Translations under genes and position numbers: made by a program
Notes under the pieces: generated by a model
What the model was told of the DNA's origin: nothing
The model's database searches: none
Seen by the model: the letters and a program-made list of their open reading frames with translations, nothing else
Part shown: piece by piece, positions 3,561 through 31,395 of the stretch
Position numbering within the stretch: position 1 is the stretch's first letter
Layout of the letters: each line of letters opens with the position of its first letter
Origin: Saccharolobus solfataricus
Lineage (GTDB): Archaea; Thermoproteota; Thermoprotei_A; Sulfolobales; Sulfolobaceae
DNA length: 32,000 nucleotides
Assembly (NCBI RefSeq): GCF_900079115.1
Contig: NZ_LT549890.1
Span: forward strand, 1,080,001-1,112,000
Reading direction: 5' to 3'

Positions 3561-4439
3561 ATGATAAGAGGGATAGACGGTATAATTAAAGGGAGAAATA
3601 CTATGGATGGTGCTGGGGTTAAACTTTACAGAGTGTTCGGTGGGCCAGATACAGTGGATCTGACAGATCCCTTCCTTTTGCTGGACTTCTTCGGTTCGAA
3701 TAAGGTTGAGGAGTACATTAATGGGTTTCCGTGGCATCCACATAGAGGAATTGAGACTGTGACATTATTATTTGAGGGAAAAGTAGAACATCAAGATAGT
3801 TTAGGCAATAAGGGTACAATATATCCCGGTCAAGTTCAATGGATGACCGCAGGGAGTGGGATATTTCACCAAGAAATGCCAAAACCATTAGAGGGTACAG
3901 AAATACCTAAGTATAATCAAGATCCCTTCCTAGTAAGAGGATTACAATTGTGGGTAAACCTACCATCTTACAAGAAGATGACGCAACCAGTATATAGAGA
4001 TGTCAAAAGTATTCCAAGAGAGAGGTTTGAGTTTGGAGAGGTATCGGTATTGGCTGGAGAGTTTGCTGGAATTGAGGGACCAGTTAAGGTTAAGAGCGAT
4101 GTCGATCCCTCATATATTCATGTGAAATTAAATGGAGACATGAGACTAAAGGTAAAAGAAGGATATACAGTATTGGCCTACGTGGTTGATGGTACTGCTA
4201 GGTTTGCTCCTAATTCTCCAGAAATAGGAAAGGGTAATTTAGTGATCTTCACTAGGGAAGGAGATGAAATTAAAATTAGTGGGAACGCTAGCTTTATAGT
4301 ACTGTCTGGAAGGCCTCTAAATGAACCAGTAGCGTGGTATGGACCAATAGTTATGAATACTGAAGATCAGATAATTGAAGCCTTCGAAGATTTGAGGAAG
4401 GGTACGTTCATAAGACATAGGGAAGTATTATATGAGTAA
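3561..4439 (+). CDS. pirin-family protein (bicupin; quercetin 2,3-dioxygenase-like)
   Basis: Carries the pirin signature FPWHPHRGIETVTLLFEGKVEHQDSLGN, then GQVQWMTAGSGIFHQE, in a two-cupin layout. Size is 292 aa. Confidence 0.85.
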   Translation: MIRGIDGIIKGRNTMDGAGVKLYRVFGGPDTVDLTDPFLLLDFFGSNKVEEYINGFPWHPHRGIETVTLLFEGKVEHQDSLGNKGTIYPGQVQWMTAGSGIFHQEMPKPLEGTEIPKYNQDPFLVRGLQLWVNLPSYKKMTQPVYRDVKSIPRERFEFGEVSVLAGEFAGIEGPVKVKSDVDPSYIHVKLNGDMRLKVKEGYTVLAYVVDGTARFAPNSPEIGKGNLVIFTREGDEIKISGNASFIVLSGRPLNEPVAWYGPIVMNTEDQIIEAFEDLRKGTFIRHREVLYE

Positions 4440-4861
4440 TACCACGGGTAGGACTTAGTTTAGTTTTATTATTTTTCCTGAATAAATTAATGGGATATTC
4501 TTTCAAAATTTAGGGAATACGAAGAGTATTACGCTAGTTAAAAAAGATTCCTCTATTTCTATATGGGATTAAAGTTTAGTGATCTCGAAATACAAAATCT
4601 CTCAAAAGAAGACATTATAGAGAAGTTAAAGAATATGCAGAAAGTTAGAGGAGTTGAATTAGATCTTGAAGTTCAAAAAGGGAAGATAGGCGGTATAGAG
4701 ATTTCACACTACTATTTCCATTAAGTTTATAGTCTAGTATTACTATGTAAAAACAATATGAAAATTACGTCTATTGCAATGACCTACGAAAGCATATGGA
4801 TCCTACAACTAATCTCTCAATTTTCTTTATTAATCTAAGCTTATAAGTAACTTATTGATGG

Positions 4862-5111
4862 ATGATGAGGTATAATAATTTTCTGGAAACACTAACGTCG
4901 ATGACTTGTGCTAGATGCGGATACGTCAGGGAAGATTTAACTCTCTTCGACCGCGTGTTTGTTTGTCCTAAATGCGGTTGGATAGTAGACCGTGACTATA
5001 ATGCTTCTCTCAACATCCTACACAGATCGGGGTCGGAACGACCCCTAGTGTGGAGCTCTGCCCTCTACCGCTGGCAAGGTGGGGGTATGAAGCAGGAAGC
5101 CCTGTCCGTTA
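4862..5111 (+). pseudogene. tnpB: IS200/IS605-family TnpB (OrfB) 3' fragment, 5'-truncated and split by an IS insertion (tail continues at 6337..about 6365)
   Basis: Zinc-ribbon/RuvC-III end of TnpB: [11 protein letters not shown]...[26 protein letters not shown]. It is followed by a GC-rich structured tail (ggggtcggaacgacccc...). The tail resumes after the IS as gtgcaaggtagttcactag. No N-terminal TnpB sequence lies upstream. Confidence 0.7.
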
Positions 5112-6336
5112 CGGTAGACCCAAAATCACCTCCATAAAAATAAATCTATAGTATTAATAAGTGTTTCCTCAAGATTAAATATAAAATCCTTTAGATCAGA
5201 TAAATCGTCTAGAAAGCAGAGGATGAGCAGCAATCTAAACTCCTCTCTTGTCATGACGTTCTTAAACACGGTGTAAAGCGAGTAGAAGATCATGGCCAGC
5301 ACGAAGATCAACTCGCGGAAGATGAACTTGGTGGAGCTCGTGAAGGGAAGGAAGGCCTTGATGTTCCTGTAAGACGTCTCAATGGGACTCCTAACCTTGT
5401 TGTACAACTTCAGCACTTCCCTCTTGGGTAGGTCGAGGTTGGTCGCCCTCGCGAAGTACACCACGGTCTTCTTCCTCTTCTTAACGATTTCCTTACCATA
5501 CACCAGGAGTCTGAACTTGACCTGCTCTTCCTTCTTATGCCTCTTACTGTTTGTCGTGTACTCTCCGTCGAACTCCTCGTAGATCTTCACGTCCCCCACA
5601 GGGACTCCTATCACGAACTTGAACTGCGATATGAACTTGAGGACTTCCACGGTGTAGAATCCCGCGTCCAAGGTTACGAGCCCCACCTTGAAGCCCATTC
5701 CCACAATTTGCTCCATGAGAAGCTTCACGATCTCATCCTTGCTCATCCCGTTAACTTGGGGAACGAAAGCTAGGAGGAGCACCATATTCTGATACTTCGT
5801 GGTCGCGGTAGCGTAGTTCCACGAGTTCCCCTTGGCTGAACTACCCAGTCCCTCCACCGGCTTACCATACCACGTCTTGGTTGTCCAGTCTATGGAGATG
5901 TCGACTTCCTTCACTCCCTTGAGTATCTCCATGGAAATCCTCCTCATGGACTCTAATAGCTTCTCGATCACCTCAGTTCCCTGCTCCTCCACGTAGTTCC
6001 TCACGGTCTGTGGTGACACGTTATACCCTTTGGACTTGCTTTCCACGGAGTCGTTCCACAAGCACGCGGAGACCAGAACTCTCGATACCTCCTCCGCCTT
6101 TCTTCCCTTGAAGCTCAACATGGAAAGTAATTTATACCCTACTTGTTGTAGATTATTTTGGTGAGGAAGACCAGGTGTTATCACCTTGTCTTCACCACGT
6201 GATAATACCGGCTTCCTCACCTTAAATCTTTCTTCAATTAATTGCGTTCTTGTCAAAGCTATAAATTCTATTATTTTTCAGAATCTGATATTACCCAACC
6301 AAAATTATTTTTTGTAAAATGATTTTGGGTCTACCG
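5112..6336 (-). mobile_element. Insertion sequence, 1225 bp, IS4-superfamily DDE type (ISC1225-like by length)
   Basis: Perfect 17-bp terminal inverted repeats: cggtagacccaaaatca at 5112-5128 and its reverse complement at 6320-6336. Flanked by the 4-bp direct repeat GTTA (5108-5111 and 6337-6340). Carries a single transposase ORF. Confidence 0.85.
5126..6256 (-). CDS. DDE transposase (IS4/ISH-type)
   Basis: 376-aa ORF filling the IS. Contains LVTLDAGFY (DDE Asp) and [16 protein letters not shown], a Y-R-E-K-like C-terminal signature. It is GC-richer than its flanks. Confidence 0.8.
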
Positions 6337-6499
6337 GTTAGTGCAAGGTAGTTCACTAGTGCTTTCAGAAAGTTTATAGCTTTAGGCAAAGGATATACCA
6401 CTAGATTATAGTCTAAGAACTTTTCCAAAATACTAACGTAGGTTATGGAAATAATGAGATATTACATAACATAAGTCTAGAAATAGCGGAAAAAGGAGT

Positions 6500-7739
6500 T
6501 TACGTGAGAGTGTCCGGAATGTAATTATCTGAACGAATAGATAAACAGAATGATAAATATTAATATTGCCAGAAGGGTAGGACCTGGATCACCGAGAAAA
6601 ACTTTATAATGGAAAAATATCAAGACGAGAGGATTTACCTATCGCGCATAGCGTTGCTTGATCGCGAGGAGGCGCGTCTCAGAGCTGAACGGCTCTACGT
6701 CCTGGAGGAGTCCTCCGTTGGATCGCGAGGAACATCTTGATGTTGTAGATCACTCCCAGGACGTGAAGGAAGACGTCGTTCCTCCAGGTCGTGGTCCCGT
6801 AGGGCCTCCAGAACGCGTTCAGGTAGGTGCCGAAGAACTCCACGTGGGCCCTCAGGGTAGTGAAGGGCTTCTCCCGCGCTATGAGCTGTGTCGGGGAGGG
6901 AGAGAATCCCCTGTCCGCGATCTTAATCCCCTTGAGCGGTGACTTGAACCTCTTGTCCGAGAAGTTGGCCGGCTTCACCGTGATGGACCTCACGAAGAGG
7001 GAGACGGAGATCACGGCTATGGCCTTGAGCCCGTAGTGCGAGACCCCTCTCTTCTTGGTCCACCTTCCCTCGAACCTCCTCTTGGTTCTCCCCAGGGAGA
7101 GCAGCTTCCTGGCCCTCTCCAGGTTACCTTCCCTCCTCTCCAGCTCCGCCTTCTCCCGAAAGGTCTCCACGCTCCTCTTCCCAGGAGGTAAGTCCAGTAG
7201 GAAGGAGTCCACTAGCCACGCCATGAAGTCCACGAGATGCGCGCTCGCAGGGAGGTAACTGGGTAGGCACTTCTCCTCAAGCTTGAAGGAAATCTCCAAC
7301 AACTTCTTCCTCACCCCGTACAACCTGCCCACGAAGTCGTGCAGCGTGCTCTTCCCCACCTTCCTCCCCACGAACCAGGCCACGACCACGTTCACGTTAA
7401 CCATTTTCACCGCGTCCCTATAGGAGCAAGAGTAGAGCACCATGACGATTAACAACTTCAAGTAAACCAGCGCGCCCTCGCCCAGAACCCTCTCCAAATC
7501 CATGGCGTCCAGCACGGGCTTGATCTCCGTTAACCATTTTTCCCTCCACGGCATATCCTCTATTGGGGGAAGAGGGTAGTACATCAGGTTTGGTATGTGT
7601 CTTAATGTTCTTGCCATGGTACTACCCTCTACTCCCATAACTTAAGTGTTACTCCAATTTAATCCAAGATAATGCTAAAAACCAATTTATTCTTGCCAAT
7701 AAAAATTCAATTTTTTACATTCCGGACACTCTCACGTAA
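6500..7739 (-). mobile_element. Insertion sequence, IS5 family (ISC1234-like by size), GC-rich
   Basis: Perfect 25-bp terminal inverted repeats: ttacgtgagagtgtccggaatgtaa at 6500-6524 and its reverse complement at 7715-7739. The core cgtgag...ctcacg spans exactly 1234 bp (6503-7736). The element interrupts the ABC ATPase just upstream of Walker A. Confidence 0.85.
6679..7638 (-). CDS. IS5-family transposase
   Basis: The InsH-type N-domain pattern (LKLLIVMVLYSCSYRDAVKMVNVNVVVAWFVG) and IADRGF motifs are typical of IS5. A hand count gives 38/60 G+C at 6661-6720, against 17/60 in a host line. An alternative start is ATG 7617 (MARTLRH). Confidence 0.75.
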   Translation of the reverse strand: MGVEGSTMARTLRHIPNLMYYPLPPIEDMPWREKWLTEIKPVLDAMDLERVLGEGALVYLKLLIVMVLYSCSYRDAVKMVNVNVVVAWFVGRKVGKSTLHDFVGRLYGVRKKLLEISFKLEEKCLPSYLPASAHLVDFMAWLVDSFLLDLPPGKRSVETFREKAELERREGNLERARKLLSLGRTKRRFEGRWTKKRGVSHYGLKAIAVISVSLFVRSITVKPANFSDKRFKSPLKGIKIADRGFSPSPTQLIAREKPFTTLRAHVEFFGTYLNAFWRPYGTTTWRNDVFLHVLGVIYNIKMFLAIQRRTPPGRRAVQL

Positions 7740-8046
7740 TACTGGGAAAAACGGTGCGGGAAAAACTACCTTACTAAGGACAATAGCCGGAATTCTGAAA
7801 CCGATTAGGGGAGAGATTAAGGTTAACGGAAAAGTGGCTTATATTTCTCACTCTTATGGATTGCCTTAAGAGATGAAAGTTAGGGAGACGCTGGAGTTTT
7901 TCAGAAAGATATTACTGGGTGGAGACATAGAAAAAGTAATTAACGAATTAAATTTACAGGATATTCTGGATAATAGGATTAGTGACTTATCTGAAGGGCA
8001 GAAAGGAAGGATTTCGTTAGCTAAAGTATTCATGAGGGGAGGATAA

Positions 8047-17131: not shown

Positions 17132-17656
17132 TCAATTATTATTCACCACCCCGTAAAGCTTTTTAATTGTATCGTCTACGGTGACTTCGATCCCAAAATT
17201 CTTTTTCAAAAATTCGGTCAATGATAAAACTATTTGATCTAGTTTTCTTCTCAACTCCTCTGATAGTCCTAGCTTTACATCTAAGACATAAGGCTTACAG
17301 CCCACTAAGTATACTTCTGGAGCATAGCCCATGATCTTAAGAGTTGTTAAAATACTTTGTATCCCTACACCATGTGACCCTGAATACTCAAAATCTAATA
17401 CTGTAGAGGTCACCTCATCACTATCTATGTTAATGTCAATTCTACTTATATCGAAATCTTTATCCATCGCTACCGCATCAATTAAAATGATTATATCATA
17501 ATCTTTAAGTACTTCCATAGCTGATGCTCCAGCTGCTCCAAGATCTATAACATCACATCCCTTGACATTTCCGTATAGGGCTTCTGCCATATATGATCCA
17601 AATCCATCATCACCCATTAGCCTATTTCCAACTCCTACTATTGCTATCCTTTTCAT
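17132..17656 (-). CDS. hoxM: [NiFe]-hydrogenase maturation endopeptidase (HoxM/HybD/HyaD family)
   Basis: IAIVGVGNRLMGDDGFG (GxGNxxxxDDGxG), ILIDAV (Asp ligand) and SGSHGVG (His ligand). 174 aa. Confidence 0.85.
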   Translation of the reverse strand: MKRIAIVGVGNRLMGDDGFGSYMAEALYGNVKGCDVIDLGAAGASAMEVLKDYDIIILIDAVAMDKDFDISRIDINIDSDEVTSTVLDFEYSGSHGVGIQSILTTLKIMGYAPEVYLVGCKPYVLDVKLGLSEELRRKLDQIVLSLTEFLKKNFGIEVTVDDTIKKLYGVVNNN

Positions 17657-18424
17657 TTAAAAATCCCTCCAATACTTCTCACCTTCTGGAATAGGCTTCC
17701 AACTGGGCTTCTTTTGGGAATTCATTATCCTTCCGTGAAGTCTTACGAGCCTTGAGATCACTGGCATTAACTCCTCCCTCTCCTTAACTTGGTCTGTAAT
17801 CAATCTACCTACTAAATCCCTCGCCTTCAGCAAGTTGTCTGTAACGTCCTTCCATAATCCCCAGTCAGCTGAAGTGAGTTCTATAATTTTATTCCCCTCA
17901 ATATCGTATTTTAATAATAATGAGATCACATCTGATAAGTGTTTATCTAAAGCGAAATGAATCTGAAGCTTTGATAGTAATAAATCTTCCTCATTTAATG
18001 TAAACTCTGAGTTCCAATTAACTGGGATTACGTGGCTAAATCTCATTTCGTTGAAGTAATAAGCTCTTACCACTTTCTCTTCCTTGAAGAACATACTTAC
18101 AATATTTCCTAGTGTTTTCTCGAGGTGAAAGTATGGAGTGTAATCTAGATTGTACATAACTTGTTTAAACTTTTCCCTATCTTCAGTTCTTACTATGAAA
18201 TTAATGTCTTGAGGACCACTTCTTCTATACAACTTCATTATATCTGACGATAGTTTGTTATCCTTGACCTTATAGTAAACTGCGATGGATCCATAAAGTA
18301 AAGCAACTATCCCTTTCTCTTTACATTTCTCATATATTTTTTCAGCATCACTCAAATAATCATTAAACATCTTATTAACATCAATCTTTCTAAGTTGTGC
18401 ATCAAATGGGGAAATTCCAGACAT
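17657..18424 (-). CDS. hypothetical protein, possible nucleotidyltransferase-fold (NTP_transf_5 / KNTase-like) with helical C-domain
   Basis: 255 aa. LLYGSIAV...YRRSGPQDINFIV resembles the G[GS]...R...D.D.hh motif, but with Asn in place of the second Asp. The C-terminal helical part contains RLVRLH (an Rx4H-like string). The stop abuts the hoxM start. This is a weak by-eye call. Confidence 0.5.
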   Translation of the reverse strand: MSGISPFDAQLRKIDVNKMFNDYLSDAEKIYEKCKEKGIVALLYGSIAVYYKVKDNKLSSDIMKLYRRSGPQDINFIVRTEDREKFKQVMYNLDYTPYFHLEKTLGNIVSMFFKEEKVVRAYYFNEMRFSHVIPVNWNSEFTLNEEDLLLSKLQIHFALDKHLSDVISLLLKYDIEGNKIIELTSADWGLWKDVTDNLLKARDLVGRLITDQVKEREELMPVISRLVRLHGRIMNSQKKPSWKPIPEGEKYWRDF

Positions 18425-18471
18425 TATATTTACATATTATCTTAGTGATATATATTTTTACCTATATTTCT
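18425..18471 (-). promoter_or_regulatory. possible internal promoter within the hydrogenase operon
   Basis: This is the only sizeable spacer inside the 11-gene block (47 nt) and it is very AT-rich. On the minus strand AAAAATATATAT is centred about 29 nt upstream of ATG 18424. Confidence 0.3.
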
Positions 18472-18975
18472 TTATGTTTTTACTTTATCTAATAATTTTT
18501 CTAATTCGTTTAATAAACTTATAATATCAATAAAATTCTGTGATCTCTTTATAATCCTTATATACTTGTCTATTTGGATAGTCGTGAAATTCCTATTCAT
18601 CATTTTAAAATCTGGATCATTTGTAATTACAATTCCACAATTAGTGACACTACCAATTAATGGTAAAACGGAAGGTATCTGAAGTACTTTAGCAATATTA
18701 AAATCTCCCTCAACCTCTATATAAACCTCATAACTCCACACTATTTCATCCAATCTTAAAGAGTATCTAGCTTTAAGAAAATTTAATAGATCATTAACTA
18801 GTTTCTGAGACTCATCTCCAATAAACATGATCTGCTTTACGAAATTGCCACCTCTTTCATCTAATATTAGGTTAATCTTAACACCCCTAAAACTAAACTC
18901 TAAGGAACTTGTGTAAAAAAACGAATTAATAATTTCTCTAGGAATTGGTCTTAAAAAGGAAATTGTATAGACCAT
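18472..18975 (-). CDS. hypothetical protein (167 aa from ATG 18975; 185 aa if 19029 is used)
   Basis: ORF in the operon. ATG 18975 lies 5 nt after the upstream stop, whereas 19029 would overlap the upstream gene by 49 nt. No motif recognised. Confidence 0.5.
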   Translation of the reverse strand: MVYTISFLRPIPREIINSFFYTSSLEFSFRGVKINLILDERGGNFVKQIMFIGDESQKLVNDLLNFLKARYSLRLDEIVWSYEVYIEVEGDFNIAKVLQIPSVLPLIGSVTNCGIVITNDPDFKMMNRNFTTIQIDKYIRIIKRSQNFIDIISLLNELEKLLDKVKT

Positions 18976-18980
18976 TTCCC

Positions 18981-19427
18981 TTATTTTCCTAGCCTTCTTA
19001 ACACTTCCCTTTTCATCATTTCCTTGCATGTTTTACCCCACTTACTAATTTCTCCATCATTGTTCACAACTTCACATTCAATTACTATTAAATCTGGAGG
19101 TAAACTACCCATTACTCTAGCCATTTTAATAAAAGTATCAACATCCATGAAGTAAGCTTTCATTCCGCTATGAATTTCTAAAAAATCTGAAAAGGTGCTA
19201 CCATTAAACTCTGGTCTATATACTCTTAACTCCTCCTTCCCTCTCTTTTCACTTGCTAATAGAATAAGATTATCTAGATTAAGTTGAAATAAAAAAGTAG
19301 ATGCCTTAATTGCACCCAAACTTAAATCAATTACCTCAATACCCTCTAGTCTCATTTCTTCCATAACTAGCAATGGAATTTGATAATCTCCTTTATACCA
19401 ATAACCTATTGCTGCGATTTTTGGCAT
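18981..19427 (-). CDS. degenerate hydrogenase-endopeptidase paralogue (HybD-fold, metal ligands partly replaced)
   Basis: By-eye alignment to the adjacent HoxM. IAAIGYWYKGDYQIP aligns with IAIVGVGNRLMGDDGFG. IEVIDLSLGA aligns with CDVIDLGAAG. NLILLASE aligns with IIILIDAV (Asp to Ala). EIHSG aligns with SGSHG (His kept). PDLIVIECEV aligns with PEVYLVGCKP. Confidence 0.6.
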   Translation of the reverse strand: MPKIAAIGYWYKGDYQIPLLVMEEMRLEGIEVIDLSLGAIKASTFLFQLNLDNLILLASEKRGKEELRVYRPEFNGSTFSDFLEIHSGMKAYFMDVDTFIKMARVMGSLPPDLIVIECEVVNNDGEISKWGKTCKEMMKREVLRRLGK

Positions 19428-19750
19428 TTATTGGCACCTTTAGGTTTTATTGTTTCTGCTAGCTTCCATAATATATTTTCTGGGTTTTCAATATTTAAGG
19501 GAGTCACATTGCACGCTAATGCTGCTAACCTTCTTGATTCGCTTATCCTAATGTTCCTATTCTCTTTTATTTCTAAATTGAGGTTATACTCCCTTAAAAT
19601 CTCCTTTAGAATTGAAATTGAATCTTCTCTTTCCCTAATAACTGGGTAAATGAGTTCCTTAACACTTTGTTTAACATCTTCATCTAAAACTTTGGTTATA
19701 TCACTAATCATCTTGTCGAATCCTAAAATACGAAGTAGAAAACCACTCAT
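19406..19750 (-). CDS. hypothetical small protein (114 aa, helical and charged)
   Basis: The start codon overlaps the isp2 stop (ATGA at 19747-19750), which suggests translational coupling. No motif recognised. Confidence 0.5.
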   Translation of the reverse strand: MSGFLLRILGFDKMISDITKVLDEDVKQSVKELIYPVIREREDSISILKEILREYNLNLEIKENRNIRISESRRLAALACNVTPLNIENPENILWKLAETIKPKGANKCQKSQQ

Positions 19751-21018
19751 ATCTTTATCCCCCTATCCAGTAGCTCAGTAAAGTAGATCACTTTGAAATC
19801 GGCTTGTTTATCCTTTACTGCATTCTCTAGTGACAACATACAGTTAGGATCAAATACTATTACGCTCTTCCCTCCCCATTTGGTTAGCTGAGAAACGACG
19901 TAATTTCTAACTCTCTTCAGAATATCCTTTTTCTCACCTATCAATTCTACATGATGAGTACACGTGTATAATTTATCTGAAGATGGCTTCTCCTTAGGCT
20001 CAATGAATTGCGGAGCTGTTAGCCTTAATATCTCTCTAGGTGGCTCCTCAATACCACCCAGTCTACTGAGGAATTCTGAGTAGTGGACACTAGTAGGCGC
20101 TACTATATCAGCCTTTTCTAACTTTACTTTACCTTGCTTATACATGTCATACACAGTTTTGGTTAAATGTTCAACTTCTATTGGAGGAGTCTCCTTAATG
20201 CTCTTTGGACCTTGCCATCTTAGCCAGAAATACCCCATACCATCTGTGGTGATTATCTTTTTAACATTTAGTTTCATAGCAGTTTCATAAATTCTAACTA
20301 ATATACCTCTGGCAGTCTCAAAGTCACCCATAAGATATGCGTAATATCCTGGATCACTAATTTCAGAGCTTACAGTTACGCTGAGTTTTAGTTTACTTAA
20401 AACGCTTACGGTATTAGCCAAAACGTTAGTGTTTTGAATCTCCAAGGGTGAAGGAACATATAGTATTTCACTGTCCTTTTTATCTATATTAAAGCCTACC
20501 TTACTTGCTACTTCACCCCAATTTTCTATTCCAAATGCGTTTCCTTTTTCTTTAGAATTAATAATTAACTTCTCTGCACTTTCATAATTAAATCCAGAAT
20601 AGTGAAGAATCCTCCTCATTATTATAGCAGTATACCAATTTGGTACCTCCATTGGAGATGTATATGTACACGCTCCACATGCAGTACAATCATATGCAGA
20701 TTCAGTCCAATGTTTAAATTCATTTCCACTTATTCTTCTAAGCCTTAAATATCTAGCAACAATGCCATAACCAGTGTAAAACATTGAATATATTTTATTA
20801 ATTTCATACGTTCTCCAGGCTGGCACATCATAAAATTTCTTAGTTTCCTGCCAAAATGGGCATGAATAACTACAAATCCCACATCTCATACAATTCTCTA
20901 TTCCCATTACATCTGATGGAGTAAACTCATCAAAAGTCTTAGATGCTAATTTTCTATTTATTTCAACCTTTCCCTTACTCAACCTAAATCCCCCACATTT
21001 AAACTCTTCTTTTACCAT
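19747..21018 (-). CDS. isp2: Isp2-like Fe-S subunit (HdrD/DsrK-related) of the hydrogenase membrane module
   Basis: First ferredoxin motif CMRCGICSYSCP (C43, C46, C49, C53). Second motif CTACGACTYTSP (C111, C114, C117, with Ser121 where Cys is expected). The large C-terminal domain has no CC(G) motif. Start set at ATG 21018 (MVKEEF), a 20-nt overlap with isp1. The ORF track start is 21048. Confidence 0.7.
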   Translation of the reverse strand: MVKEEFKCGGFRLSKGKVEINRKLASKTFDEFTPSDVMGIENCMRCGICSYSCPFWQETKKFYDVPAWRTYEINKIYSMFYTGYGIVARYLRLRRISGNEFKHWTESAYDCTACGACTYTSPMEVPNWYTAIIMRRILHYSGFNYESAEKLIINSKEKGNAFGIENWGEVASKVGFNIDKKDSEILYVPSPLEIQNTNVLANTVSVLSKLKLSVTVSSEISDPGYYAYLMGDFETARGILVRIYETAMKLNVKKIITTDGMGYFWLRWQGPKSIKETPPIEVEHLTKTVYDMYKQGKVKLEKADIVAPTSVHYSEFLSRLGGIEEPPREILRLTAPQFIEPKEKPSSDKLYTCTHHVELIGEKKDILKRVRNYVVSQLTKWGGKSVIVFDPNCMLSLENAVKDKQADFKVIYFTELLDRGIKI

Positions 21019-21886
21019 ATACACTACCTGCAAATCCCTTCTGCACATAATACCAGAACATATGGAATGCCTTACTAAATGGCGTATATCCTATGAATAT
21101 TCCAATTAACGCTATGTGTAAACCATACCAGTTGGCTTGATTAGGTATACCTAGATATGGAAATCCCCAATCATATGCTGCCCCTAGACCAGTGATCATT
21201 ATGGCTGCTAATAATATTAAGAAAACGTAATCACCAACACTGCTAATCATTCTATGTCTGGTAGTATCATCAACTATTCTAGTAGCTAAATAACCTACTA
21301 AACCCGCTAATGCTAGCAAGGTCATAAAACTTCCATTAACTATTACTGATAATACACCCCATGGCGAAATTGTATTCGTTGCTACTTGAGCGGAATTCCA
21401 GGCTCCAACTGGATTCATTATTCCTCCTTGAGAATATGAATTTGGACCAAGTATTCCTATCTGATACCCTGAGGTAAATGACTCTGGTACTGATGCAGGC
21501 ATCAACCAACCAAGAATATTCTGAAGTCCGGTAAGTTCGCTATATATGTAGTTCCACGCTATAATGTGAATACCTACAACTATGATTAGACCTAATATGA
21601 AGATGTGGTTAAATATTGTCTCTAAGATCAATAATGGATCATTTTTAGCGGCTCTACCGAATGGTCTAGGAATCGCACTAACCGCTTCCTTAAATTCAGT
21701 AGCAAATCCAGCTTGTCCCTTTGTCGCGGCTCTTGAAAATAAAAATTCCCTAGCTATCCTATAAATAGCACCGAAAACAAAAAATATAATACCTATAGGG
21801 AAAATGACATCTAAGCCCCACCAATACAGACTTAATGGAGTCGCTGGACCACCATTTGCTCCTATTGCAGCATGGACTACTATCAA
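20999..21886 (-). CDS. isp1: Isp1-like integral-membrane di-haem b-type cytochrome (NarI/HdrE/DsrM family)
   Basis: Five or more TM helices. His pairs are H94/H107 in one helix (NHIFILGLIIVVGIH) and H257/H275, 18 residues apart, in the last helix. The last helix also carries the PFSKAFH motif typical of NarI-like proteins. The gene directly abuts the hynL stop. Confidence 0.7.
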   Translation of the reverse strand: MIVVHAAIGANGGPATPLSLYWWGLDVIFPIGIIFFVFGAIYRIAREFLFSRAATKGQAGFATEFKEAVSAIPRPFGRAAKNDPLLILETIFNHIFILGLIIVVGIHIIAWNYIYSELTGLQNILGWLMPASVPESFTSGYQIGILGPNSYSQGGIMNPVGAWNSAQVATNTISPWGVLSVIVNGSFMTLLALAGLVGYLATRIVDDTTRHRMISSVGDYVFLILLAAIMITGLGAAYDWGFPYLGIPNQANWYGLHIALIGIFIGYTPFSKAFHMFWYYVQKGFAGSVYGKRRV

Positions 21887-24145
21887 TTACTTCACCCTCA
21901 TTGCAAACTTATAGAATGCCTTTATGGATTCACTTAAATCTATAGGAGCTCCTAAGGTGATATATCTAACTTTACCGTTTGGCAAAACTACGTGAACCCC
22001 ACAAACGAAGCATGGGTCGAATGATCTTAGTGTTGCTGCAAATTCAAACCCATCCCATTGCTCTAATGGTGTTACTGTTAATTTTGGTATACCATTAATG
22101 TTATACCCTTGATTTCCTTGGATAACTTCCTCAAAAGTTCCAGCACCTCCATTTTTAGCCAATAATGAAAATGGTTGTATTTCCCCTATAACATCTTGAT
22201 AAGAGTTAACAACCCTAGGACCAGCATTTACTGTTGTTGGTTGTTGCTGCTGCGGGTTTATTGTAGGAACTGTGGGACCACTGCCTAAGGCTATAACTTC
22301 TGAGTGCCACTGTGCTCCTCTAGGTGCCTCTTTAAGGCCAACTCCTAGTGCAACATCCGTATTAGTATTCTTCTTATAGGTCCAATCATACTGGTTACCT
22401 CTACTAACTGCAGTTTGTCCTTGAGTCAGATACTTTACTGCAGCAAACCAAGCTATCCATCCACCAGCACCTTCTAAAGCCACAGCGTGAGCTCTAGCTC
22501 TCATTCTTTCCACAGCATTGGTAGTCACATTTATAGTACCGTTAGATAGCTTAGATGATAAGGCCCATGGTGAAACATACTTTATGTCTATCTCACCTTG
22601 TAGTTCTGGCGGTAATATTATCCTAGAAGAAACGGTTTGCGGTAAGTTCCATATTACTGATTGCTCATTACTATTATAATTGATTTCTATACCCGCAACT
22701 GAATATGTTGAAGTGTAAATTGGATCCGGACCTTGTGGCTGCAATACTTGAACCCACATAACAGCTTGCGGATCTGCCTCAACATTGAAGAAGGAGTTCA
22801 TAGTAGGTTTATGCCCAGAATATGGTACTATTCTCGGCGATACTGCCCAGCTATACTTATTCTGTGAATTTCCGCTTCCAAATGGATAGCCCCTAGCTAA
22901 TGGCATTGGTATTGTCCATTTCTTCCATGGATGATAATTACTTACTGGATTTCCTATTGGATCTTGCGAGATTCCAGAAACCTCTGACGGAACTTGAGGG
23001 TTGTTTACCCAATCCTCATAAAACGAAGACTCGATAAATTGTCTCATTCCTAGATTTATATCAATTAGACTATTAGTTACCAGTTGTGGGGGTGAATTTG
23101 GGCTTGTTTGTATTACCAGTCCAGGTTTAACTACTCTAGCCCTTCCCCATGCTCCCATGTTTTCATATGTAGCGTCATATTCCATAACTGAAGTTGATGA
23201 GGGGGTCACTGAGGGAGGTTCAGCTACATCACTTTGGCCATAGCATAAATAATTTCCTGGCCTATTACCCATTTCAGCAAAGCCTAAATTATTATATTTG
23301 TCGTAATACGCTTGTACACCGAAAGCGTTACCATAATCGGTTAAGAATAGATTTAACACTTCCCAATACGCTACTTGCTTCTTTAAGTATGCTGTTCCAT
23401 CTACTAATCTTTGTAAGTACTGTTGTAGGTTTTCTACAGTAGCAGGGACTCCTATCCCACCTGGAACCATGGTTATAGGATGCGGGACTCTTAAATAGTA
23501 TAATAGCTCAGCTTCATGAAATATTCTCCACACATATGCACCTTCCAACCATATCGCACCGATGATTGGAACTAGACCATCCATTATATCAGCCACTGTT
23601 CTCATGGTTACTCCGCTAAACTTTAGCTCGCTAGGAGCTCCATTTGGAAATGCTTCAGAATACTCTAAAACCTTGCTTATTGGTGTTTGTTGTGCTAATT
23701 GGTAAATTTCTGGTGGATAATAGCCTGCAATCTTAAAGAATAGTGAACTCCAATCTGGTCCACCTAAAGCTGTTAAATGTGCAGTGTGATCATACATCAT
23801 TGCAGCATCATTAGCTAACATGATAGTCTCTAGTCCTAACGGTGGTGGAGCATAACCGCCCATTGCCATTTCTTGCGCTATTCTCTCTATGAACTGATGA
23901 TGTTCTCCACATATTCCACACTCTCTGGATGATAACATTATGACATCTGGTGCTGGTTTATTCCTCATGAAGATCTCGAATCCTCTAAACATTCCTGCTC
24001 CAGCATATGCTTCTACAGCCCTGACTTGATTTTGACCTTCTATATTTACGCTTACTTGAATCCCTAACTCTGGCTTTATTCTAACTATGGGCTCTATTAC
24101 AACTGGCTTTGTCCAATCATATTTAAATAGGTATGAAGAGGCCAT
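21887..24145 (-). CDS. hynL: [NiFe]-hydrogenase large subunit (membrane-bound uptake type), unusually long at 752 aa
   Basis: N-terminal Ni-Fe ligand motif SRECGICGEHH (C76, C79). Also EAPRGAQWH. C-terminal motif DPCFVCGVH (C712, C715, H718) is followed by a 34-aa extension that would be removed by the endopeptidase. Confidence 0.9.
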   Translation of the reverse strand: MASSYLFKYDWTKPVVIEPIVRIKPELGIQVSVNIEGQNQVRAVEAYAGAGMFRGFEIFMRNKPAPDVIMLSSRECGICGEHHQFIERIAQEMAMGGYAPPPLGLETIMLANDAAMMYDHTAHLTALGGPDWSSLFFKIAGYYPPEIYQLAQQTPISKVLEYSEAFPNGAPSELKFSGVTMRTVADIMDGLVPIIGAIWLEGAYVWRIFHEAELLYYLRVPHPITMVPGGIGVPATVENLQQYLQRLVDGTAYLKKQVAYWEVLNLFLTDYGNAFGVQAYYDKYNNLGFAEMGNRPGNYLCYGQSDVAEPPSVTPSSTSVMEYDATYENMGAWGRARVVKPGLVIQTSPNSPPQLVTNSLIDINLGMRQFIESSFYEDWVNNPQVPSEVSGISQDPIGNPVSNYHPWKKWTIPMPLARGYPFGSGNSQNKYSWAVSPRIVPYSGHKPTMNSFFNVEADPQAVMWVQVLQPQGPDPIYTSTYSVAGIEINYNSNEQSVIWNLPQTVSSRIILPPELQGEIDIKYVSPWALSSKLSNGTINVTTNAVERMRARAHAVALEGAGGWIAWFAAVKYLTQGQTAVSRGNQYDWTYKKNTNTDVALGVGLKEAPRGAQWHSEVIALGSGPTVPTINPQQQQPTTVNAGPRVVNSYQDVIGEIQPFSLLAKNGGAGTFEEVIQGNQGYNINGIPKLTVTPLEQWDGFEFAATLRSFDPCFVCGVHVVLPNGKVRYITLGAPIDLSESIKAFYKFAMRVK

Positions 24146-24146
24146 T

Positions 24147-25496
24147 TTAACTCACCTCCTTAGCTTTTGGAATTATGGGTTTACCTCTTCTCCTAGATAA
24201 ATAATAAGAACCTACACCCACCACTATTCCGGCACCTACAGCTGCAGCTAGTAATGTTGTTGAAGGTAGAGTTGGTGCATTTGGTGGTGCATAGAATGGT
24301 TCATATAAATCTGGAAACCCTGGGGCAGTACAAGCGATACATACTCCACCTCTAGTGCATCCTCCTACACCACCGACCCAACCTAAAAGTGGGGCGGGAC
24401 TATTAGCTTCAGTACCCTTACATCCTAGGCTATAAGTACATTGAGGGTCTCCGAAATTCTTAGCAAATATGCCTTGTGCGAAGAATCCAGCTCTTGGACA
24501 ATTCTGATGGGTTTCATTTCCGTAAAAGTATTTTGGTCTATTGAAAACATCTAGAGATTCTGACGGTGCGGGACCTAATCCTCTGGCATATAGTACTCCA
24601 GCTACTAATGTTCTCATAATCCAATCCCCGGCAGGTGGATCAGCTGCGATTGCAACAATTGGTTGTTTTAACGTACTTAACCAATGATAACTTGGTCCGG
24701 GATATGCCGTATTATATGGCGAATTGGTAACAGCATATATATCTTCATCAATTACTTGCTCTCCTCTGAAGTAACCTAAACCTTTCTGATATACTTCATG
24801 TATATATGCAGGGAAACCTAAAATTCCCCTATAGGGATCATCTAGCATTCCCATAGTATATGTGGGACTTCTCTGTCCTAATCCATTTGTAGTGGAAGGT
24901 ATTCCCCCATATGTTGCACAAGCACCGGTAGCATAAACTAGAGCTGCTCTCTTCATTAGATTAAATACGAACTCGTCACATAATAGTACATGACCGCTAG
25001 GTGTTCTGCCGGCAGAACACCAGAAGGAGTCCTTGGGTTTTTGATAATATAGTCCAAATTCATCAAACATCGTACCCTCAACAACTAATACATAGGGGTC
25101 GAAAACCCCAGCTAATGCAGCCTCCATAGTAGGATAGGCCATATCATCTTGTGGCATAAGTATTGGGTGATAAACTAGATTTACGTTCCCTAGATTTGCT
25201 ATTGACGGAGCTCTTAATGTTATTGGTTGTAGATTTATTGTTACTTGCGTTATCACATCTTCTACAGCAGGGTTCATTGCATCTATAAACGCTATTGTGT
25301 TTCCTCCACACCATCCGTTCCCTGTCCATATCACGTTTATTGGATCTGCTAAAGAATCGCTAGCCATATTAAATAGATCTTTCCAAGTTAATCCCTTCTC
25401 CATCATCCAAGCTGTTAATCCTGTAATACCCGCTAGTTTCATGAAATCTCGTCTGCTTATTCCCACCTTTATTTGTCTAGGTTTAGGATCTTTCAC
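24147..25496 (-). CDS. hynS: [NiFe]-hydrogenase small subunit with Tat signal and C-terminal membrane anchor
   Basis: GTG start at 25496. Twin-arginine motif SRRDFMKLAG. Small-subunit motifs GACATYGG, HQNCPR, CTYSLGCKG and CIAC. C-terminal TM segment TLLAAAVGAGIVVGVGSYYL followed by RRRGK. Several canonical Cys positions are substituted (see findings). Confidence 0.9.
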   Translation of the reverse strand: MKDPKPRQIKVGISRRDFMKLAGITGLTAWMMEKGLTWKDLFNMASDSLADPINVIWTGNGWCGGNTIAFIDAMNPAVEDVITQVTINLQPITLRAPSIANLGNVNLVYHPILMPQDDMAYPTMEAALAGVFDPYVLVVEGTMFDEFGLYYQKPKDSFWCSAGRTPSGHVLLCDEFVFNLMKRAALVYATGACATYGGIPSTTNGLGQRSPTYTMGMLDDPYRGILGFPAYIHEVYQKGLGYFRGEQVIDEDIYAVTNSPYNTAYPGPSYHWLSTLKQPIVAIAADPPAGDWIMRTLVAGVLYARGLGPAPSESLDVFNRPKYFYGNETHQNCPRAGFFAQGIFAKNFGDPQCTYSLGCKGTEANSPAPLLGWVGGVGGCTRGGVCIACTAPGFPDLYEPFYAPPNAPTLPSTTLLAAAVGAGIVVGVGSYYLSRRRGKPIIPKAKEVS

Positions 25497-26670: not shown

Positions 26671-27927
26671 ATGAAATTTCTATCATGGAGGGAAGCAGTT
26701 AATGAAAATAAGAAGCTGATAGTGTTATTTATGACTACTAGTTGGTGCGAAAGTTGTGAAGAGCAAGAAAAGGAATTACTTGAAATCGAGGATGAAAGAG
26801 TTTCCCTAGTTAAGGAAGATGCTGATGAAAGGTTGGATTTAGCTGTAAGATATACACCCCAAATTTACCCAACAATTAGTCTAATATCTAAAAATTCTGT
26901 CATTGGGGGAACTTACGGCTTAGTAAAAAGGGGCAAATTGATAGAAATGATAAGTGAGGCCTTAAAGCTAATAGAGGGAAAGGGTAAGTTTATAGTTCCC
27001 CCTAAACTGTCTTCCCAAAAAATTGATAAATTCCCACCAGATTACGCATTTAACCATATCTTAAGGGTTTGTGAGGGATATTTTGATTGGAAAGAGGGAG
27101 GATTTGAGAGGGAACCAAAGCATGTTTCTCCAGAAGTATTACAGCTATTCTTGCATTTTAATGATTATTATCATAAGATAATGGTGGAAGTAACGTTAGA
27201 TAACGCTATAGAATATTTATGGGAAAATGGATTTTGTATGTTTTCCAAGTCAGGAGATTGGAAGGAACCCTATAAGGCTAAATTATTAGACTATAATGCT
27301 GAAATGGTTAAGACGCTTGTTAAGGCGTACCAAGTTTTGAAAAAGGAGATCTACCTAGATTACGCAATTGCTACTACTGACTGGTTATTGAGTAAGAGGG
27401 ACAATAGGGGTTACTTCATCAATGGTGAATTTCTTGGAGTAGAGGATAAGAGACCATTTCTCAACGTTAATGCTAATGTTGGAGACGCCTTCATGGAAGT
27501 TTATAGGATTACCAATGACAAGAAATATCTGGAGATTGCAAAAGACTTAGAACAGAGATTAGTATTAGCACATAGAATGGATGTACTTTCTCCTCCATAC
27601 TTGATAGATTTAGCCTCATACTTAAATTTCCTCTCTAAACTTAATCCAGATAAAGCTAGAAATTTATTGCATATACTTGACGATTATAAAGGAAGTGAGG
27701 CTTATTACGACACGACATTAGGGTTTGCTACGGAGAACAAGATAGGTAGGTTTTACTTCCTTTACGATAATGTTTTGCTAGCAAACGCATTGATTAACCT
27801 TAATATTTTTGAAGAAGCCAAAAGAATTGTAGATATGTTTCTCTCCTCATATAGCATTTACGTATATTTTAACCAAGCTAAGTATGCTCTAGTTTTGGGT
27901 GAAATTTATGGTCTCTTTACTCACTAA
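26671..27927 (+). CDS. thioredoxin-fold + alpha/alpha-toroid protein (short YyaL/DUF255-like)
   Basis: N-terminal thioredoxin-like segment KKLIVLFMTTSWCESCEEQEKEL (CxxC). A central GGFEREPKHVSPEVLQLFLHF resembles the GGFG.APKFP...L.FLL motif of YyaL-type proteins. The C-terminus is repeat-helical. Confidence 0.55.
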   Translation: MKFLSWREAVNENKKLIVLFMTTSWCESCEEQEKELLEIEDERVSLVKEDADERLDLAVRYTPQIYPTISLISKNSVIGGTYGLVKRGKLIEMISEALKLIEGKGKFIVPPKLSSQKIDKFPPDYAFNHILRVCEGYFDWKEGGFEREPKHVSPEVLQLFLHFNDYYHKIMVEVTLDNAIEYLWENGFCMFSKSGDWKEPYKAKLLDYNAEMVKTLVKAYQVLKKEIYLDYAIATTDWLLSKRDNRGYFINGEFLGVEDKRPFLNVNANVGDAFMEVYRITNDKKYLEIAKDLEQRLVLAHRMDVLSPPYLIDLASYLNFLSKLNPDKARNLLHILDDYKGSEAYYDTTLGFATENKIGRFYFLYDNVLLANALINLNIFEEAKRIVDMFLSSYSIYVYFNQAKYALVLGEIYGLFTH

Positions 27928-29607: not shown

Positions 29608-29954
29608 AAGATAACAATGTTTTTAATACTTTTAAATCTTTATAACTCTTATGAGCTTATATGATTTAGAAATAATCGACCTAGACGTCAATATAAGGGA
29701 TGGGAAAGTAGTTAGTGCTAAGTGCTCTGGAAACAAGGTAAGAGGATTTGAAAAAGCATTTACGGGGAAAGATGCTAAAACGTTATATGAAGTTTTACCT
29801 AGAGTCTTAGCTACATGCAGCCAATCTCACCTTTACGTATATGTTAAACCTCATATCCAAACTTCAATAACTGAACTACTTATGTTTCTAGAAATCATTG
29901 ACAGTCATATGAAACACCCTTATGCTTACTGGTTTCCACATATAATTAAAGACG

Positions 29955-31395
29955 ACAGTGGTGTTTCACCAAATTATTTCATTTGAAAGATATAATATTA
30001 GCACTTTCAAAAAGAGATTGATATAGAGAAAAACAATAAAATTATTATGAAACATAACATGTTAAAATAATTTGCAAAAAATATAGCGTACAATTCTAAT
30101 AATAAGAGGAGAATTCTGAATTTTTCTCACGTGGTGAAAACGACGTGCATAGTCTCCTCTGAACACCGAGAAAGTTAGAGAAGCTTGACGAATGAATCGA
30201 AGGACAAAACCTTCTTACACGTGGACTTGAAGTTAAAGAGAAGATGATTCACTAGATTCCACGCAGAATCCAGAACCGTATAATAGAGGAACAAGAAGAT
30301 CTTATTACTCAACTTCCTAACATACCTTATCCTTGCCTTCCTAACCTTAAAACCCTCCTCAACCTGCCACCTCAACCTATAGAGTTCAGCCAGTTCATAG
30401 GGATCTCCCTCGAAGTTCGTTACGAACATGAAGTGCCTCGGCTTTCCCTTAACGTAAACCACATCGTAATAATAAAGCCCTTCAAATTCCAAGACCCTAT
30501 ACGCAACGTAAACCTTGTCCTTAACCTCGTATCTCTTCTCAACTAATGGAACGTTAGATAGTTCCTTGAATCCCTTCAAGTTCGACTTTCCTCTCACAAT
30601 GGTCTTCACGGGCATTTCCTTGATGACCCCTAGGTTCAAGAATCCGGCGTCAGCTACAACGTAATCTATTTCCATGTATTGGCTTACTTCCCTCACGCTC
30701 CTGAGTAGGAACTGTGATGGACTGTCGCTTCTCAAATCTGCTACCTCCACTAGGAGGGGTAACCTTAAGGGATATACGAGGTCCAAGGATCTCATCTTTA
30801 CTCCTTTTCTCTTCCAGTTGTAGAGTAGAAAGCCCTCTGCTTTTTCTTGTTCCTTTTCTCCCACGGTTAATCCGGTCTCATCTACAGCGACTACGTTGAT
30901 CTCTCCCTTTACTTCTCTGTAGATTGGGTAGAACTTGAAGGTTCTCTGACCTTTACTAATTACTTTCTCGCCTCGTCTTACTACCTTCAAGTAGTATTTT
31001 CCTCTGTTTCCGGTTAGCAAGGATGGTGCTGCTTTCACTATTTCCGGGTCTAGATCTTGAGAGATAACGTTAATATTGTTTGTTGCTAAAGTTATAGCGA
31101 GGGACTTCAGCTCCGTTTTGGATACTTGTATGGTTTGCATAACGGAGTTATGGAGTCCCTCGCTTTAACCTTTTCTTGTTCATCTCGTCCTTCCACCTAC
31201 TTTCCTCTATTGATAATACTAGACAAATGGTATTACTCTTTATATATAAACTCGTTTTCTGTTAGTTTCTTCAACAAATATGAAAATTTTTTGCTTCTTG
31301 TGTTGAAATAAGCCGATTTTTCTAACTCCGCTCTGATATTTTTCTCTTCCATAGAAATTGTATCATTTTGAGTAAAATTGGTGAAACACCACTGT
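29955..31395 (-). mobile_element. Insertion sequence, 1441 bp (ISC1439-like by size), DDE type
   Basis: Perfect 18-bp terminal inverted repeats: acagtggtgtttcaccaa at 29955-29972 and its reverse complement at 31378-31395. Perfect 7-bp target-site duplication AAAGACG (29948-29954 and 31396-31402). Confidence 0.9.
30175..31140 (-). CDS. DDE transposase (IS4-superfamily-like)
   Basis: 321-aa ORF inside the IS. Contains YVVADAGF (DDE Asp) and LYRLRWQVEEGFKVRK (the Y..RW.vE..Fk..K C-terminal signature). Confidence 0.8.
   Translation of the reverse strand: MQTIQVSKTELKSLAITLATNNINVISQDLDPEIVKAAPSLLTGNRGKYYLKVVRRGEKVISKGQRTFKFYPIYREVKGEINVVAVDETGLTVGEKEQEKAEGFLLYNWKRKGVKMRSLDLVYPLRLPLLVEVADLRSDSPSQFLLRSVREVSQYMEIDYVVADAGFLNLGVIKEMPVKTIVRGKSNLKGFKELSNVPLVEKRYEVKDKVYVAYRVLEFEGLYYYDVVYVKGKPRHFMFVTNFEGDPYELAELYRLRWQVEEGFKVRKARIRYVRKLSNKIFLFLYYTVLDSAWNLVNHLLFNFKSTCKKVLSFDSFVKLL

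Follow-up and report, generated by a model that had tools for sequence, protein, structure and literature searches.

Three substituted iron-sulfur ligand residues in the small subunit of an SUL2-type [NiFe]-hydrogenase from Saccharolobus solfataricus

Gene order and identity of the hydrogenase locus

The stretch analysed here (the window) comprises 32,000 nucleotides (nt) of Saccharolobus solfataricus (contig NZ_LT549890.1, positions 1,080,001 to 1,112,000) and carries a [NiFe]-hydrogenase operon, whose first gene (24147-25496, -; strands are given as + or -) encodes a small subunit of 449 amino acids (aa). An earlier reading made from the letters without database searches (hereafter the sequence-only reading) had called this protein HynS and its partner HynL, and had proposed that several cysteine ligands of its iron-sulfur (Fe-S) clusters are missing. 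We retain the two names as labels, although the enzyme proved to be of the SUL2/Hsu2 type, with HynS an orthologue of HsuS2, and not a generic Hyn enzyme. Three of the twelve usual Fe-S ligands are changed in HynS, to Asn, Asp and Ser, and the distal site is unchanged.

HynS contains the domains PF14720 (E = 6e-23) and PF01058 (E = 2e-10), both passing their cut-offs, which places it in the small-subunit family. Its best solved relative by sequence is HofK, the group 1h small subunit (5aa5_A, E = 8e-38), and an AlphaFold2 model based on 109 sequences, with a mean predicted local distance difference test score (pLDDT) of 85.9, gave the same chain as its top fold match, together with about 50 other small subunits. 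The twin-arginine (Tat) signal of group 1 small subunits is present (S14-R-R-D-F-M-K20; 25437-25457, -); it was read from the sequence, matches TIGR01409 (TAT_signal) at the cut-off, and corresponds to PF10518 in the orthologue P0009. At the other end of the protein, a hydrophobic stretch modelled by AlphaFold2 as a helix forms a C-terminal transmembrane anchor (residues 412-436; 24189-24263, -), followed by RRRGK; the Acidianus brierleyi orthologue has likewise been modelled as membrane-anchored (PMC11018855). As a [NiFe]-hydrogenase small subunit, HynS is exported through Tat and anchored at its C-terminus. The open reading frame (ORF) opens at GTG (25467-25496, -), and a second GTG (V11) lies ten codons downstream. 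Several orthologues begin at the V11 position (MGLTRRDF...), whereas the two closest relatives keep the longer N-terminus (K-D/E-P-K-P-R/K-Q), so that the true start of HynS is uncertain.

The gene for HynL (HsuL2, 752 aa; 21887-24145, -) lies 1 nt from that of HynS, matches PF00374 and encodes the Ni-Fe ligands C76, C79, C712 and C715. Its best solved relative is HofG (5aa5_C, E = 6e-49), but HynL is much longer than the 579 aa of HofG, with long insertions (e.g., around residues 440-540 and 620-700) and a C-terminal extension of 34 residues beyond DPCFVCGVH718, where HofG ends at CGVH. Pfam and NCBIfam models cover only the N-terminal 100-270 residues of HynL, with scores far under the NCBIfam cut-offs. 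Downstream, on the same strand, are genes for an Isp1-like cytochrome-b-type membrane anchor (295 aa; 20999-21886, -), recognised by weak matches to TmcC, HmcE and QmoC and by its conserved position in other loci, and for an Isp2-like (HdrD/DsrK-like) Fe-S protein (433 aa; 19747-21048, -) with Fer4 domains and similarity to DsrK, TmcB and HmcF. A hydrogenase maturation endopeptidase of the HycI family (17132-17656, -; PF01750, E = 1e-12) is also encoded, and a HypC gene lies near the operon. Between isp2 and the maturation protease gene (17657-19750, -) there are four small ORFs (114, 148, 185 and 255 aa) with no Pfam or NCBIfam match; in the metagenomic contig L013, ORFs of 114 and 173 aa follow isp2, and at least part of this set may therefore be conserved SUL2 accessory genes.

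The same S-L-isp1-isp2 order was found in L001 (Sulfolobaceae), L003 (Candidatus Acidianus copahuensis), L004 (Metallosphaera yellowstonensis) and L013, and HynL is 69-87% identical to the large subunits of the first three. This arrangement is the hallmark of the SUL2 (Hsu2) clade of Sulfolobales and has been reported only there (Leung et al. 2024, PMC11018855). According to the same study, the top HydDB match of SUL2 is group 1h at ~29% identity, and proteomics and activity staining identify the membrane-bound Hsu2 as the aerobic hydrogenase that predominates in A. brierleyi (PMC11018855). In the dataset of PMC11018855, the large subunit of L003 appears as the A. copahuensis sequence next to A. 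brierleyi HsuL2 (top HydDB hit 1h, 29%), and HynL groups with these HsuL2 homologues by sequence identity. The named close homologues of HynS all come from Sulfolobaceae (Acidianus, Metallosphaera, a Saccharolobus metagenome-assembled genome (MAG), and Sulfolobaceae RB850M). Because the gene order matches and HynL is 69% identical to the L003 sequence of the published dataset, it is near-certain that HynS is the small subunit of an SUL2/Hsu2-type uptake [NiFe]-hydrogenase. The clade, its operon and its physiological role have already been published, and the HynS locus adds a new member.

Substituted ligand residues and their conservation

Translation of 24147-25496 (-) reproduced every HynS residue that the sequence-only reading had named, and the codons of the three substituted residues are unambiguous (N66 AAC, D286 GAT, S366 AGT). 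From a Cys codon, Asn and Asp are each two base changes away and Ser is one. At the proximal site, W62-C63-G-G-N66 (25299-25313, -) stands where CxxC is expected, and A285-D286-P-P288 (24633-24644, -) takes the place of GCPP, which puts Asp at the position of the fourth proximal ligand in the alignment. The third proximal ligand motif, G191-A-C193-A-T-Y-G-G198 (24903-24926, -), is intact as claimed, and its C193 is invariant in all 109 aligned sequences. The distal ligands H330, C333, C353 and C359 (24420-24509, -) and the pair C386/C389 were also correctly reported as intact, by translation as well as by alignment.

The medial site required a correction. The loop N365-S366-P367-A368-P369 (24390-24404, -) has no Cys, in agreement with the proposed loss of the first medial ligand; however, the loss had been placed at A368-P369, while the nearest relatives put the lost Cys at S366-P367. 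Standard group-1 and NiFeSe enzymes have their loop Cys in the register of A368. In HofK (Q-C-N-V-P) and in the closest Isp-type outgroup, P0011 (H-C-P-W), Cys lies two residues before this register, and N-S366-P corresponds to N-C-P with Cys replaced by Ser. S366 is taken as the substituted medial Cys because group 1h and P0011 (H-C-P) carry Cys there. The remaining medial ligands are C380, C386 and C389 (24330-24359, -), the last two of which are invariant. C380 had been listed as an extra Cys, but it is Cys in 87 of the 98 other homologues (Pro in 11) and corresponds to the cysteine in the GGC or NWC motif of HofK and the NiFeSe enzymes, the canonical fourth ligand position of 4Fe-type medial clusters. 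HynS thus lacks the full canonical ligand set (four proximal Cys, or three Cys and an Asp; a Cys in the medial loop; a distal His and three Cys), and only eight thiolates plus one His are left for three clusters.

C193 and D286 are separated by 93 residues, compared with a median of 41 in other homologues, which gives an insertion of ~52 residues, close to the ~55 first estimated. This clade-specific insertion (approximately residues 205-270; 24687-24884, -) is predicted to be structured, with AlphaFold2 pLDDT values of 92-98 over most of its length, and contains no Cys. His233, within the insertion, varies among clade members, whereas His271 is found in all of them but the partial sequence P0010.

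A search of 5.8 billion proteins returned 108 matches, ten of which (50-92% identity) formed an SUL2-like set, the others being at most 35% identical. The resulting 109-sequence alignment contained 11 clade members, including HynS and the partial P0010, and 98 non-clade homologues; the nearest database protein was 92% identical to HynS, and the exact sequence was not among the matches. The ligand residues were as in HynS in all ten full-length clade members (70-92% identity), apart from position 66 in P0004. Position 286 was Asp in 10/10 full-length members and Cys in 98/98 others, so that the check for orthologues with an ordinary Cys found none in the full-length clade. S366 and A368 were present in all 11 members, whereas the 98 other homologues had Cys either at 366 (57 sequences, group 1h-like) or at 368 (41 sequences, standard or NiFeSe-like). 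Position 66 was Asn in nine of ten clade members and Asp in one (P0004, from the Saccharolobus MAG), and was Cys (40), Asp (35), Glu (17) or Asn (3) in non-clade homologues.

The same substitutions were found in the genomes of Candidatus Acidianus copahuensis, Metallosphaera yellowstonensis and two further Sulfolobales, in a scan whose dependence on exact peptide patterns limited it to four Sulfolobales loci. When 1.84 billion representatives at 50% identity were searched with a profile, SUL2 appeared as one cluster plus fragments. No intact sequence among the 149 next-best representatives had Asp at 286, the few non-Cys exceptions at that position looking like fragments or mis-translations, and 142 of 146 had a Cys within the loop 360-372. 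Since the substitutions are shared by all full-length clade members, they are not due to chance or sequencing error, and across the sequences compared they are clade-fixed and essentially unique. The partial P0010 (~50% identity) has Ser366 yet retains Cys286, which suggests that the medial Cys was lost before the proximal Cys286. Natural intermediates thus exist in the metagenomic P0010/P0110 lineage (Ser366 with Cys286) and in P0004, which has Asp at both 66 and 286, and these would be useful comparators for the effect of each substitution.

HynS does not belong to group 1h, 1g/1e or 1d, lacking the defining characters of each. HofK of Ralstonia eutropha (group 1h, 5aa5), the best match in both sequence and fold, shares a non-Cys residue at proximal position 2, the fourth medial Cys in GGC, and a first medial Cys site in the register of S366. 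However, HofK has Asp instead of Asn at position 2 and keeps the Cys at GCP and in the medial loop (C-D-G-D, G-C-P and Q-C-N-V-P, compared with C-G-G-N, A-D-P-P and N-S-P in HynS). Its aligned sequence has no Tat signal and no ~52-residue insertion, and it has no Isp partners; group 1h enzymes are without Tat signal, anchor and large-subunit extension, all three of which occur in HynS/HynL. The sequence-only reading had cited Asp ligation of the proximal cluster in an actinobacterial-type enzyme. Such a precedent exists in the C-D-G-D motif of HofK, but its site is that of N66 and not that of D286. The Isp-type enzymes (bacterial 1e, crenarchaeal 1g) share with HynS the Isp1 cytochrome b and HdrD-like Isp2 partners, the Tat signal and the outward orientation, but here the HynL gene directly follows the HynS gene, which departs from the Isp-type order. 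P0011 has a 1g-like gene order and a full ligand set (C-T-G-D, GCP, HCP, GGC), and chain A of the group 1g model of PMC11018855 has nine Cys. The six-Cys proximal [4Fe-3S] site of group 1d (Cys19/Cys120) is also absent, HynS having G64/G65 and G197/G198 there.

The closest described system is A. brierleyi Hsu2 (PMC11018855), which agrees with the HynS locus in gene order, Tat signal, C-terminal anchor, a large subunit of ~750 aa and a closest match to group 1h below 30%, as well as in its ten Cys, its motif positions and the non-Cys residues N, D and S. It differs in species, HynS being ~72% identical to the homologue that carries the A. brierleyi numbering (P0006). That study models the cofactors by homology, and neither its main text nor its Supplementary Note 1 mentions missing Cys ligands or a disulfide (PMC11018855); no other paper on SUL2 was found in the literature searched. 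A 2014 survey of natural ligand variants (PMC4070099) contains neither an Asp at proximal position 4 nor a Ser in place of the first medial Cys. Within the literature searched, the three-ligand replacement of the SUL2 clade therefore appears not to have been described previously.

Cluster pockets and a predicted disulfide in an orthologue model

Distances were taken from the published AlphaFold-multimer model of A. brierleyi Hsu2 (Leung et al., PMC11018855), in which chain A is HsuS2; residues are given in HynS numbering. Chain A has ten Cys, its numbering is identical to that of P0006, its motif positions match HynS, and pLDDT is 87-93 at the ligand-equivalent residues. The inspection of ligand distances that the sequence-only reading had proposed put the Asn, the Asp and the Ser on cluster vertices. 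In the proximal pocket, C63 SG, N66 ND2, C193 SG and D286 OD2 lie 3.0-3.7 Å from a common centre, with edges of 4.4-6.4 Å (Asn66 ND2 at 3.7 Å and Asp286 OD2 at 3.2 Å from the centre). Glu140 OE1 is 2.8 Å from Asn66 ND2, 5.0 Å from Cys63 SG and 5.6 Å from the pocket centre. In the medial pocket, S366 OG is 6.1, 6.6 and 6.7 Å from the SG atoms of C380, C386 and C389, which are 5.8-6.4 Å from one another, so that the four atoms form a regular tetrahedron (edges 5.8-6.7 Å); the CB of A368 is off-vertex. Between the centres of the proximal and the medial pocket the distance is 12.7 Å. All three cluster pockets appear to be kept at normal spacing in this model.

C160 and C173 (24978-25019, -), both invariant in the clade, belong to the loop that follows strand beta3 in the AlphaFold2 model of HynS and lie on the same side of the sheet as the clusters. 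Their equivalents in the A. brierleyi model, C158 and C171, have an SG-SG distance of 2.03 Å and are 12-14 Å from the proximal ligands, and the pair is predicted to be a structural disulfide and not to bind metal. The two residues had been described as extra Cys. They are indeed not at ligand positions, but C160 is ancestral, as it is Cys in 45 of the 98 homologues and aligns with C88 of MBH HoxK, a residue that is not known to be a cluster ligand in MBH or Hyd-1. C173 is also present in outgroups such as P0011 and P0122, which carry Cys at 286 and in the medial loop. Such a disulfide would be unusual for a hydrogenase small subunit, and plausible in an extracellular, acid-exposed enzyme.

Divergently from the operon, 26671-27927 (+) encodes a protein of 418 aa whose N-terminal part has a thioredoxin fold (WCESC) and whose C-terminal part resembles six-hairpin glycosidases. 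A neighbour with the same thioredoxin Pfam match is found in L013 (4943-6217), and ORFs of similar size occupy corresponding positions in L003 (2989-4236) and L004 (1766-3028). This protein may act in redox maturation or disulfide handling of the exported hydrogenase.

Farther along the window lies a 111-aa ORF (29651-29986, +) that shows weak similarity to about 60 residues at the N-terminus of [NiFe] large subunits (NCBIfam E = 7e-7), with a degenerate L1 motif (RVLATCSQSH). A DDE transposase gene (30175-31140, -) adjoins it, and the ORF may be a remnant of a second hydrogenase broken by an insertion element. In L013, the SUL2 operon is followed downstream by genes for a SUL1-like small and large subunit. 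The G+C content is 0.42-0.47 at 4001-8000, compared with ~0.32-0.37 in most of the window.

Cluster chemistry, alternatives and significance

HynS would be exported by the Tat system together with HynL and anchored by its C-terminal helix on the outer membrane face, and electrons from H2 would reach the Isp1 cytochrome b by way of three Fe-S sites and then move to quinone or Isp2. The first shells would be Cys63/Asn66/Cys193/Asp286 (proximal), Ser366/Cys380/Cys386/Cys389 (medial) and His330/Cys333/Cys353/Cys359 (distal). As only two proximal and three medial thiolates are available, the proximal and medial clusters would be [3Fe-4S]-type clusters or [4Fe-4S] clusters with O or N ligation, with potentials above those of all-Cys [4Fe-4S] clusters. 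At 70 °C, the Nernst equation puts the H+/H2 couple at approximately -0.15 to -0.2 V for an external pH of 2-3 and at approximately -0.47 V for pH 7. With the couple near -0.15 to -0.2 V, an ordinary low-potential [4Fe-4S] relay would be uphill, and a high-potential relay would avoid uphill steps to Isp1 and quinone at external pH 2-3. A protein exposed to acid and heat plausibly gains stability from the disulfide and from the large structured insertions that both subunits carry.

We favour, at slightly better than an even chance, the reading that HynS is an SUL2 small subunit with three substituted ligands and altered, higher-potential proximal and medial clusters; for the altered clusters taken by themselves, the chances are roughly even. 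The sequence-only reading had likewise suggested that a different ligand set could mean altered cluster types or potentials. This suggestion is partly supported, being consistent with the clade-fixed changes, the pockets and the aerobic orthologue. The substituted relay works, to judge from the orthologous SUL2 enzyme, which is active, dominant and membrane-bound. Tentatively, the relay may be of an undescribed kind, with a proximal cluster held by two Cys and Asp286 and an Asn66 that caps the remaining corner or leaves it vacant, and with a vacant or O-ligated medial corner at Ser366, which would be a different vertex from that of the classical Pro-type [3Fe-4S] cluster. The potentials would be raised by a few hundred mV, and relay and disulfide together would be an adaptation to H2 oxidation in air at pH 2-3 and 70-80 °C.

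Huc of Mycobacterium smegmatis (group 2a, 7utd/7uus) provides a mechanistic analogue as another O2-insensitive aerobic uptake enzyme. It has non-Cys residues at fourth-ligand positions together with three [3Fe-4S] clusters that are ~250 mV more positive, and these potentials are thought to set its overpotential and to support O2-insensitive catalysis (PMC10017518). However, Huc is distant in sequence (E = 1e-19 with the clade profile), cytoplasmic and stalk-bound, and reduces menaquinone directly; each of its clusters keeps three Cys, whereas the proximal site of HynS has only two. A PDB search with P0095 returned MBH-type enzymes and not Huc.

Several points weigh against altered, higher-potential clusters. 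The anaerobic group 1g enzyme of the same organisms also faces outward, which bears on the rationale from acid pH. To our knowledge, there is no citable precedent for a [3Fe-4S] or [4Fe-4S] cluster held by two Cys and an Asp. AlphaFold gives holo-like geometry at homologous positions whatever the chemistry, so the model informs on position and not on ligation, and the literature searched holds no spectroscopic or structural data on any SUL2 enzyme. The precedents for Asn at position 2 disagree, Nostoc HupS being reported to keep 4Fe clusters (PMC4070099) and Huc having 3Fe clusters (PMC10017518), and in 2014 no natural Ser ligation of an Fe-S cluster was known (PMC4070099).

The alternative that survives best, although we consider it rather unlikely, is that the substitutions are conservative and near-neutral. 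All sites would then hold ordinary [4Fe-4S] clusters, with Asp286, Asn66 (or Glu140) and Ser366 as fourth ligands, and potentials and behaviour would be much like those of group 1h, which already has Asp at position 2. Changes of Cys to Asp at most ligand positions leave [NiFe]-hydrogenases active, and HupS of Nostoc punctiforme, which has a proximal CxxN with Asn at the second position (Table 1 of PMC4070099), is reported to keep 4Fe clusters (PMC4070099); HupS differs, however, in that its other proximal ligands are Cys, and it is a non-exported group 2a protein that does not come from an acidophile. The orthologue model likewise shows potentially ligating side chains at all four vertices of both pockets, with Glu140 near Asn66. 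On the other hand, the changes are fixed under purifying selection across orthologues 70-92% identical and are absent from ~250 other homologues, a pattern that speaks for selection on some property and against drift. With oxygen ligands, moreover, potentials normally shift and the unique Fe becomes labile, and a non-Cys fourth residue can mean a 3Fe cluster, as in Huc (PMC10017518). Sequence alone does not decide between these ordinary cubanes and the altered, higher-potential clusters that we favour.

It is very unlikely that the by-eye register is misleading and that C160, C173, the insertion or large-subunit residues supply the ligands, leaving the clusters normally thiolate-bound. This explanation could draw on the invariance of C160 and C173 in the clade, on their location on the cluster side of the sheet and on the clade-specificity of the insertion, but it is already largely refuted. 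The profile and multiple alignments, which the sequence-only reading had named as its own check, agree on the register and place neither C160 nor C173 at a ligand position; C160 is ancestral, C173 is shared with P0011 and its full ligand set, and the equivalents of the pair lie within bonding distance of each other and well away from the pocket. We also rejected a Cys ligand from the insertion, which contains no Cys, and one from HynL, whose only extra Cys, C301, is not conserved. Least credible of all is a decaying or non-functional paralogue, or a lost proximal cluster with electrons leaving by another route: two of the four proximal ligands are not Cys and the NCBIfam scores of both subunits are far under every curated cut-off, but the ORF and operon are intact, the four Ni-Fe ligands, the maturation protease and HypC are present, conservation in the clade is strong, gels and proteomes show the orthologous enzyme to be abundant and active (PMC11018855), and without a proximal cluster the gap from active site to medial cluster would, by the distance rule, be too long for physiological electron transfer.

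Replacement of three ligands throughout the clade offers a testable handle on how SUL2 enzymes tolerate O2, heat and acid. In other [NiFe]-hydrogenases, catalytic bias, overpotential and behaviour towards O2 are determined by the kind of relay cluster and its potential; group 1d with its [4Fe-3S] cluster and Huc with its three [3Fe-4S] clusters are examples. In the literature searched, Asp at proximal position 4 has not been reported before, and the medial change would be a natural Cys-to-Ser replacement. A hydrogenase that withstands acid and heat and is compatible with O2 is also attractive for biocatalysis. SUL2 has been reported as the principal aerobic hydrogenase of Sulfolobales and as a candidate for archaeal uptake of atmospheric H2 (PMC11018855), and its substituted relay may add a third natural solution to aerobic H2 oxidation.

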